Shown: positions 11,068-12,134 of the stretch, in pieces
How the letters are laid out: every line of letters starts with the position of its first letter
Numbering within the stretch: position 1 is the stretch's first letter
Sequence record: MW341595
From: Shigella phage Sfk20
Reading direction: 5' to 3' (one strand)
Length of the DNA stretch: 64,000 bases
Position numbers and translations under genes: made by a program
The notes under the pieces: generated by a model
Seen by the model: the letters and a program-made list of their open reading frames with translations, nothing else
Database searches by the model: none
What the model was told of the DNA's origin: nothing

Positions 11068-11928
11068 TTATACCGCCATCTTTCCTTTAATTGGCGGGTG
11101 AGATACATAGTTGTTAAGAACAAAATCATGCGGCTTTGCGAATTGACTCAACCAAAATACCTGTGATTCTGTGTTCCATTCATCAAATTCATCTGGAAAT
11201 TTTAATTGTAATTCGCATAAATCCATAGGTTCACGACGCAAAATTTCTTTACATTGTTCTACGTGATTCATATAGATATGAGTATTACCACCAGAAAATA
11301 TCAAATCTCCAGGAATAAGATTACACATCTTAGCTACAATATGAACTAACGTAGCATATGATGCAATATTAAATGGAAGACCGAGGAAAACATCTACCGA
11401 ACGTTGATACCACTGCAAATCCAAATAGCCATTACGCACATTAAATTGATAGAACATATGACAAGGTGGTAATGCCATTTGCTTGAGTTCAGCTGGATTC
11501 CATGCTGAAACAATTTGACGTCTATCATTTGGCAGTTTTTTAATACGATCAACAACTTCTATAATTTGGTCTACACCACCAAAATCACGCCACTGTTTTC
11601 CATAAATTGGACCAAGTTCACCACTATGGTATCCTAAATCTTTTGCTTGATTTTCGTAATTTTCATCCCAGACTGTTTTGCCTTGAATTAATGAATCATG
11701 TTGAATTAATCGCAAATCATTGACATTTGTGCTTCCCGATAAAAACCATATTAGCTCAGCAATGCAAGCTTTCCAGGCAAGCTTCTTAGTCGTTACTGCA
11801 GGAAAACCTTTAGTTAAATCCCAGCGTAATTTAGTACCGAACAAAGCAATTGTTCCTGTGCCTGTTCGGTCATCGGTTTCATAACCGTTTTCCAGGATAT
11901 CTTTAATTAAAAATTGGTATTGTTTCAT
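11068..11928 (-). CDS. td: thymidylate synthase, uninterrupted (no group I intron)
   Basis: 286 aa from ATG at 11926-11928 ([26 protein letters not shown]...); ThyA catalytic LPPCH motif; continuous ORF. Confidence 0.95.
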   Translation of the reverse strand: MKQYQFLIKDILENGYETDDRTGTGTIALFGTKLRWDLTKGFPAVTTKKLAWKACIAELIWFLSGSTNVNDLRLIQHDSLIQGKTVWDENYENQAKDLGYHSGELGPIYGKQWRDFGGVDQIIEVVDRIKKLPNDRRQIVSAWNPAELKQMALPPCHMFYQFNVRNGYLDLQWYQRSVDVFLGLPFNIASYATLVHIVAKMCNLIPGDLIFSGGNTHIYMNHVEQCKEILRREPMDLCELQLKFPDEFDEWNTESQVFWLSQFAKPHDFVLNNYVSHPPIKGKMAV

Positions 11929-12134
11929 TAGTTCATCCAAGAATATGTAGAAGGATATTTGGCAAAGTTAGGCTTATATCCTAATTTAACCATTTGTTTT
12001 GCTTTGCGAGTAAATCCTAAAGAACGCTCACCTTTAAGATATTGTTTTGGTGTCATAGGCCCTTGATGCATCTGCCGACAAATAAAAAGAGCCATAGCAT
12101 TAGGAACATCCTTAACTTTTAATTTATTGCTCAT
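11928..12134 (-). CDS. small basic protein (68 aa) inserted between frd and td
   Basis: ORF track; ATG overlaps frd stop (ATGA) and its stop overlaps td ATG (TAATG). Confidence 0.5.

Follow-up and report, generated by a model that had tools for sequence, protein, structure and literature searches.

A small lysine-rich ORF between frd and td of Shigella phage Sfk20 belongs to a patchily distributed gene family of T4-like phages

Introduction

ORFan cassettes flanked by PeSL belong to the hyperplastic regions of T4-type phages (Arbiol et al. 2010, PMC2839356; PMC4122927). A PeSL cassette is bounded by a strong sigma-70-like early promoter and a stem-loop terminator (PMC2839356), and these papers mention neither frd nor td (PMC2839356, PMC4122927). 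No relevant paper came up in literature searches on the frd/td junction, the PHROG identifier given below or the T4 overlap. The free-standing homing endonucleases of T-even phages (Seg/GIY-YIG and Mob/HNH) are typically about 200 aa or longer.

Here we describe the 68-aa ORF, labelled ORF68, that lies between frd and td in the window, the whole 64,000-nt stretch of Shigella phage Sfk20 DNA (record MW341595) that was analysed. ORF68 is an already deposited and clustered phage gene, to which its mosaic origin and its status as a fold orphan are small additions.

ORF68 is joined to frd and td by codon overlaps

The features of the junction are the following:
11068..11928, minus strand: td (thymidylate synthase), intronless, 286 aa, 861 nt, from the sequence and the ORF call
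11925..11929, minus strand: downstream AATGA copy, which spans the last bases of the ORF68 TAA together with the td ATG, these codons overlapping by 1 nt (TAATG), from the sequence and alignments
11928..12134, minus strand: ORF68 coding sequence, 68 aa plus TAA, from the ORF call and translation, the PHROG 9550 match, dN/dS and the AF2 model
12131..12135, minus strand: upstream AATGA direct-repeat copy, which holds the frd TGA overlapping the ORF68 ATG, from the sequence and alignments
12131..12712, minus strand: frd (dihydrofolate reductase), a T4-type allele up to the ORF68 start, with 92.7% amino acid identity to T4 Frd

The first-pass annotation had placed the ORF at 11928-12134 with a translation identical to ours; its coordinates were right, although it left the minus strand unstated. 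The minus-strand neighbours in the window are nrdA (8246-10510), two small ORFs, td, ORF68 and frd, and upstream of frd there are small ORFs matching frd.x genes annotated in related phages, with gene 32 beyond. The frd TGA (12133-12131) and the ORF68 ATG (12134-12132) form a 4-nt ATGA, while the ORF68 TAA (11930-11928) and the td ATG (11928-11926) have one base in common and form TAATGA, so that both overlaps reported initially can be read in the sequence and intergenic bases at frd/ORF68/td amount to zero. The T4 sequence bears out the initial statement that frd and td are joined there directly through ATGA, and the alignment supports a precise indel at this junction relative to T4. Its size had been given as 204 nt; the alignment gives 206 nt, bounded by the 5-nt direct repeat AATGA, because the 204 coding nucleotides and the stop codon count minus one shared base. 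No ORF68 paralog was found within the window.

As in T4, the sequence ...GTATATAAATGA lies upstream as a putative reinitiation site, and td begins identically, with ATGAAACAATACC. Unlike in T4, the first ATGA of the window starts ORF68 and not td, which is shifted 206 nt downstream behind TAATG. By its codon overlaps and the lack of internal sites, ORF68 has the layout of coupled overlapping genes of the ATGA/TAATG type. No sigma-70-like promoter or terminator was detected within or abutting 11928-12134, and terminator predictions were zero over 10800-13400. This arrangement is consistent with co-transcription and translational coupling to frd and td. ORF68 would be transcribed together with both genes in an early nucleotide-metabolism operon, and it may be translated by termination-reinitiation at the frd stop, through the upstream sequence on which td relies in T4. 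ORF68 would then hand ribosomes on to td at TAATG, so that gain or loss of ORF68 would presumably leave td expression intact. An RNA element was considered for the ORF68 segment and rejected, given that no Rfam match above noise was obtained in or around it and that RNA folding gave no stable hairpin or unusual structure (z=+1.05).

Two further features of this region were recorded. Between td and nrdA, two minus-strand ORFs (10781-11056 and 10501-10827) occupy the nrdA.2/nrdA.1 positions and overlap each other by 47 nt; they encode 91 aa and 108 aa in the window vs 87 aa and 95 aa in the T2/T6 annotations, and the 108-aa ORF (10501-10827) overlaps nrdA by 10 nt. At the 3' end of gene 32 (about 14262-14335, minus strand), about 105 nt are absent from the window in comparison with about 495 related records. 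The missing segment includes the gp32 stop and the 7 codons before it (DDLLNDL), the hairpin annotated as the gene-32 terminator and some of the promoter-like region that precedes frd.3, and the gp32 ORF of the window (14262-15197) becomes 311 aa. Either the deletion is genuine and changes the acidic C-terminal tail of gp32, or it is an artefact of assembly.

ORF68 belongs to a small, phage-restricted family

In a megablast search with the junction, 568 phage records matched, 135 of which have the whole ORF68-type junction at 85-99% identity. A tblastn search with the protein gave 237 records, 88 of them at >=99% identity and 45 more at 95-99%. ORF68 is identical or near-identical in more than 130 T4-like records at the frd/td junction. 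The protein matches the PHROG 9550 profile (E=1.3e-45), with residues 1-68 on profile positions 1-68 of 68; this family has no assigned function, and the window copy is an ordinary member of it. The rarity implied by the first-pass annotation does not hold: about 130 Tequatrovirus records have ORF68 annotated at this place, as do four other T4-like genera. In the comparison with canonical T-even genomes that this annotation had proposed, the ORF is absent from T2, T4 and T6, and it is present in many other Tequatrovirus isolates. The ORF was read as a special insertion because T4 was taken as the reference, and T4 is the wrong yardstick.

Homologues of ORF68 are also located directly upstream of td in Dhakavirus, Marfavirus, Kanagawavirus and Serratia phage 4S. 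In all 18 of the 18 T4-like loci examined, the td ATG lies <=3 nt from the last codon of the ORF68 homologue, and this adjacency persists where other ORFs part ORF68 from frd. Homologues outside the T4-like phages (29-43% identity) were found in runs of small early genes, namely phAPEC8 gp235 and those on the metagenomic contigs L008-L011, with neither td nor frd within 3-5 kb. A HMMER search against 1.84 billion representative proteins (50% identity) returned 11 matches, including one spurious hit, P0026 (1402 aa, tandem repeats), which was rejected as a homologue. An IMG/VR scan with the close alignment added 9 loci, mostly duplicates of GenBank phages. The family comprises about 40 clusters at 90% identity and is small and phage-restricted.

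GenBank entries from the same locus include fPS-2 g231c (YP_010077118.1), KIT01_239 (BBI57587.1), Marfa gp177 (YP_009850431.1) and CIP9 gp059 (YP_009855949.1); phAPEC8 gp235 (YP_007348396.1) is a further member of the family. The usual deposited label is 'hypothetical protein', and the labels 'DUF4858' (Shinka) and 'flagellar biosynthesis protein' (PYPS2T, P8) are unsupported by the Pfam scan. Annotation is inconsistent: ACG-C40, IME339 and phage EI have ORF68 shortened to 42 aa, and JS10 has no annotation for it (the records concerned include JN986846.1, NC_012741.1, MZ502379.1 and NC_054944.1). Two copies appear disrupted and may be pseudogenes or reflect sequencing errors. In sb4 (L019, 551-754), where td is also split, ORF68 is annotated with 53 aa at 92.6% identity, and in L029 (893-1097) the match begins at residue 16.

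A Tad2-like gene (PF11195, Thoeris anti-defence) is present at 206-739 of L011 (contig Ga0397175_00001), on the strand opposite to the distant ORF68 homologue P0041 and about 4.3 kb upstream of it. This neighbour is a weak hint of counter-defence genes nearby.

The frd/td junction is a general slot for small ORFs

Different small ORFs can occupy the frd/td junction, which has three or more states. It is empty (ATGA) in T4 and in Dhakavirus Bp7. In T2 and T6 it is occupied, with short spacers, by an unrelated 115-aa ORF, RB32ORF229c, whose family accounts for about 363 records at >=90% identity and 218 more distant T4-like records. Both ORF families are found at the junction in CIP9 and in L026-L028. 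The order in CIP9 (Kanagawavirus) is frd, a 229c-like ORF, a distant 229c relative, ORF68 and td, and the junctions of Marfa and Serratia 4S contain one 229c-related ORF in addition to ORF68. BLASTP comparison of ORF68 homologues with T2_229c, Marfa gp176 and CIP9 gp060/gp061 produced no alignment beyond chance.

The members of the RB32ORF229c family (115-126 aa) include those of T2, T6, RB3, RB32 and RB68, CIP9 gp061 and gp060, Marfa gp176 and 4S_121. Like ORF68, RB32ORF229c uses the frd/td slot, is dispensable and is widespread but patchy. Unlike ORF68, in T2 it has spacers of 20 nt and 45 nt and its own Shine-Dalgarno-like sequence, with no codon overlap. In T2 (L001, 1765-1790 and 2175-2192), a 9-nt direct repeat, TAAATGAAA, lies on either side of the 115-aa insert and equals the empty-junction sequence. 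This suggests that the T2-type insert entered an empty junction with duplication of the junction. Where the insert is of the T2/T6 type, the frd stop overlaps a residual mini-ORF of two codons, ATG AAA TAA, and a Shine-Dalgarno-like TAAGGT precedes td in this type of junction.

The td gene of three ORF68 carriers, ACG-C40, fPS-2 and EC121 (L016, L017 and L020), is annotated with a 552-nt first exon, as in T4. Given that td is intronless in the window and split in other ORF68 carriers, the td intron and the ORF68 allele vary independently of each other. We also considered that the empty junction had hitch-hiked with the td intron and I-TevI, and rejected this on three grounds: T6 has the intron together with the T2-type ORF, td is split in several ORF68 carriers and the window is without the intron.

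ORF68 and the 5' end of td form a Dhakavirus-like patch

One additional feature was delimited by alignment with other phages:
11887..12134, minus strand: mosaic patch comprising ORF68 and td nt 1 to about 42, near-identical to Dhakavirus (JS10, KIT01), from alignment A5 and informative sites

The window and Dhakavirus JS10 share 97.1% nucleotide identity over ORF68 (dS 0.14) vs 79.7% over frd (dS 0.96) and 76.2% over td (dS 2.5). In alignment A5, the frd of the window is of the T4 type at every informative site as far as -6 from the ORF68 ATG, so that the left boundary of the patch falls between -6 and +44 relative to this ATG. On the right, the crossover is situated between td nt 36/42 and nt 45, and td is again T4-type from nt 45. 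Four further Tequatrovirus carriers, EC121, C40, fPS-2 and sb4, have the same patch boundaries. The td 5' variant of the patch, CAATTTTTAATTAAAGATATCCTGG, also occurs in Bp7, which is devoid of ORF68. All Tequatrovirus copies of ORF68 are >=92.6% identical to Dhakavirus copies, and no native Tequatrovirus allele as diverged as the flanks was found among the tblastn records, which fall into a band at 95-100%, one record at 90-95% and then the Klebsiella-phage alleles at about 80%.

A cassette that is near-identical across genera together with about 40 nt of td, between flanks that differ by 20-24%, indicates recent lateral exchange. Part of the low dS of ORF68 might stem from nucleotide-level constraint, as the gene is short and coupled, but transfer is favoured because the mosaic boundaries are sharp. 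Within Tequatrovirus the cassette looks acquired, as a Dhakavirus-type patch inside T4-type frd and td, and to this extent the initial description of ORF68 as an insertion is borne out. The transfer probably proceeded from a Dhakavirus-like phage to Tequatrovirus, as judged from the alignments. In the simplest reading, a Dhakavirus-like donor gave ORF68 and the 5' end of td to a Tequatrovirus. The right crossover would have been homologous, inside td, and the left join would have occurred at the AAATGA microhomology or by a homologous crossover inside a pre-existing ORF68 copy, the direction and mechanism being uncertain. Later spread of the allele within Tequatrovirus may have come about by ordinary recombination in the flanking frd and td. 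The T4/Bp7 state and the carrier state could each arise from the other through recombination at the AATGA microhomology, and loss of precisely the stretch between the AATGA repeats would restore the exact T4 or Bp7 sequence.

ORF68 encodes a conserved basic protein

The ORF68 protein (7.9 kDa) had been noted as very lysine-rich, and it has 10 K and 3 R vs 1 D and 1 E, with a pI of 10.3 and a net charge of about +10.6. Its dN/dS (Nei-Gojobori) is 0.155 vs Marfa, 0.187 vs CIP9 and 0.126 vs 4S, at dS of 0.9-2.4. Given these values of 0.13-0.19, the comparison of coding sequences indicates that the protein is under purifying selection and that ORF68 is not a chance ORF. The long 68-aa frame is supported by the N-terminus, MSNKLKV..VP, conserved across the family, and by its motifs; the conserved positions are R20, K34, G40-F41, M48 and L51-G52-Y53-x-P55.

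An AlphaFold2 model built on a 29-sequence alignment (pLDDT 83, pTM 0.59) comprises three helices (13-24, 29-39 and 43-50) and extended tails at the N- and C-terminus. It replaced an earlier run on a shallow alignment (pLDDT 56), which was set aside. A BFVD structure search with the model returned solely a Klebsiella-phage ortholog, there was no other fold match, and the model was not structurally similar to solved HTH or other small DNA-binding folds. The initial failure to recognize a domain agrees with our searches: no domain was found by a Pfam scan of ORF68 and 21 family members, and NCBIfam, PDB sequence-profile and PADLOC searches with ORF68 gave no match, the PADLOC models representing defence, not anti-defence, proteins.

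Role and origin of ORF68

We consider it probable, with some reserve, that ORF68 is a genuine, dispensable T4-like accessory gene that is coupled into the operon, was recently exchanged and encodes an early protein that probably binds an acidic macromolecule. ORF68 may be dispensable for dTMP synthesis, given that T4, T2, T6 and Bp7 do without it and that its distant homologues are unlinked to td. The protein may act elsewhere than in dTMP synthesis, perhaps by binding nucleic acid or a host or phage protein and thereby modulating host physiology or immunity. Such putative binding of an acidic partner is suggested by the strong positive charge and, in the model, by the compact helical core and conserved aromatic tail, and it might resemble that of many small early proteins of large lytic phages. 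Repeated spread across genera under purifying selection tentatively suggests a conditional fitness benefit.

The main functional rival is a td-linked role, which the strict td adjacency in five genera could signal in place of a host-directed one. ORF68 would then encode a small protein that partners or modulates Td or the T4 dNTP-synthetase complex, or else be a leader ORF that sets td translation by way of the TAATG overlap. Such a role would fit the position of the homologue, which in Tequatrovirus, Dhakavirus, Marfavirus, Kanagawavirus and Serratia 4S always comes just before td, its stop codon overlapping or adjoining the td start, and an exchanged patch that takes in the 5' end of td. T4, T2, T6 and Bp7 are nevertheless without ORF68, and T4 produces active Td; moreover, the phAPEC8-like and other homologues lie far from td and frd, and a pure leader ORF would not yield a dN/dS of 0.13-0.19 over the full length. 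We regard a tie to Td as rather improbable. It is also unlikely, if slightly less so, that ORF68 is an adaptive gene now sweeping across genera, either as a counter-defence or host-takeover factor with an unseen small fold or as a modulator of the Td/dNTP complex; were this true, function and not synteny alone would account for the strict TAATG linkage to td that is seen in at least five T4-like genera.

Regarding origin, ORF68 might be ancestral at the junction, with the empty T4 junction resulting from secondary deletion and nothing inserted in the lineage of the window. Adjacency of ORF68 and td in deeply diverged genera with saturated dS would agree with this, as would the AATGA repeats, which permit a precise deletion giving the exact T4/Bp7 sequence. 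Yet the Tequatrovirus copies are >=92.6% identical to those of Dhakavirus and carry the Dhakavirus-type td 5' patch, with no diverged native allele, and the 9-nt duplication TAAATGAAA around the T2-type insert implies that the empty junction pre-existed in Tequatrovirus, which makes an ancestral ORF68 doubtful, though conceivable. As a further alternative, the gene might bring the phage no benefit and be a neutral or selfish hitch-hiker between highly conserved, recombination-proficient genes, possibly dragged along by I-TevI homing at the td intron. Its patchy presence within two genera, the near-identical copies across genera and the split, intron-containing td of some carriers are what would be seen in that case, but the protein has been under purifying selection over saturated synonymous divergence, td is intronless in the window and ORF68 has no nuclease domain. 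Besides, the td intron occurs with the 229c-type junction in T6 and with the empty junction in T4, and thus it does not track ORF68. Hitch-hiking appears quite unlikely.

Comparison with known systems

The locus represents routine accessory-gene polymorphism in T4-like phages, for which T4 is unrepresentative at the frd/td junction. It is a clean case of an ORF crossing phage genera as a patch of about 250 nt with its codon-overlap arrangement intact at both ends, and its product is a small, well-conserved, fold-orphan basic protein. ORF68 was rejected as a homing endonuclease gene, given its size of only 68 aa and the absence of a GIY-YIG or HNH Pfam domain in 21 family members. Like the PeSL-flanked ORFan cassettes, ORF68 is a small non-essential ORF that is gained, lost and swapped among T4-type phages. 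It lacks the flanking promoter and stem-loop that bound a PeSL cassette (PMC2839356). Unlike those cassettes, ORF68 has no intergenic DNA, promoter- or terminator-like site or stable hairpin, and is instead embedded in an operon by codon overlaps.
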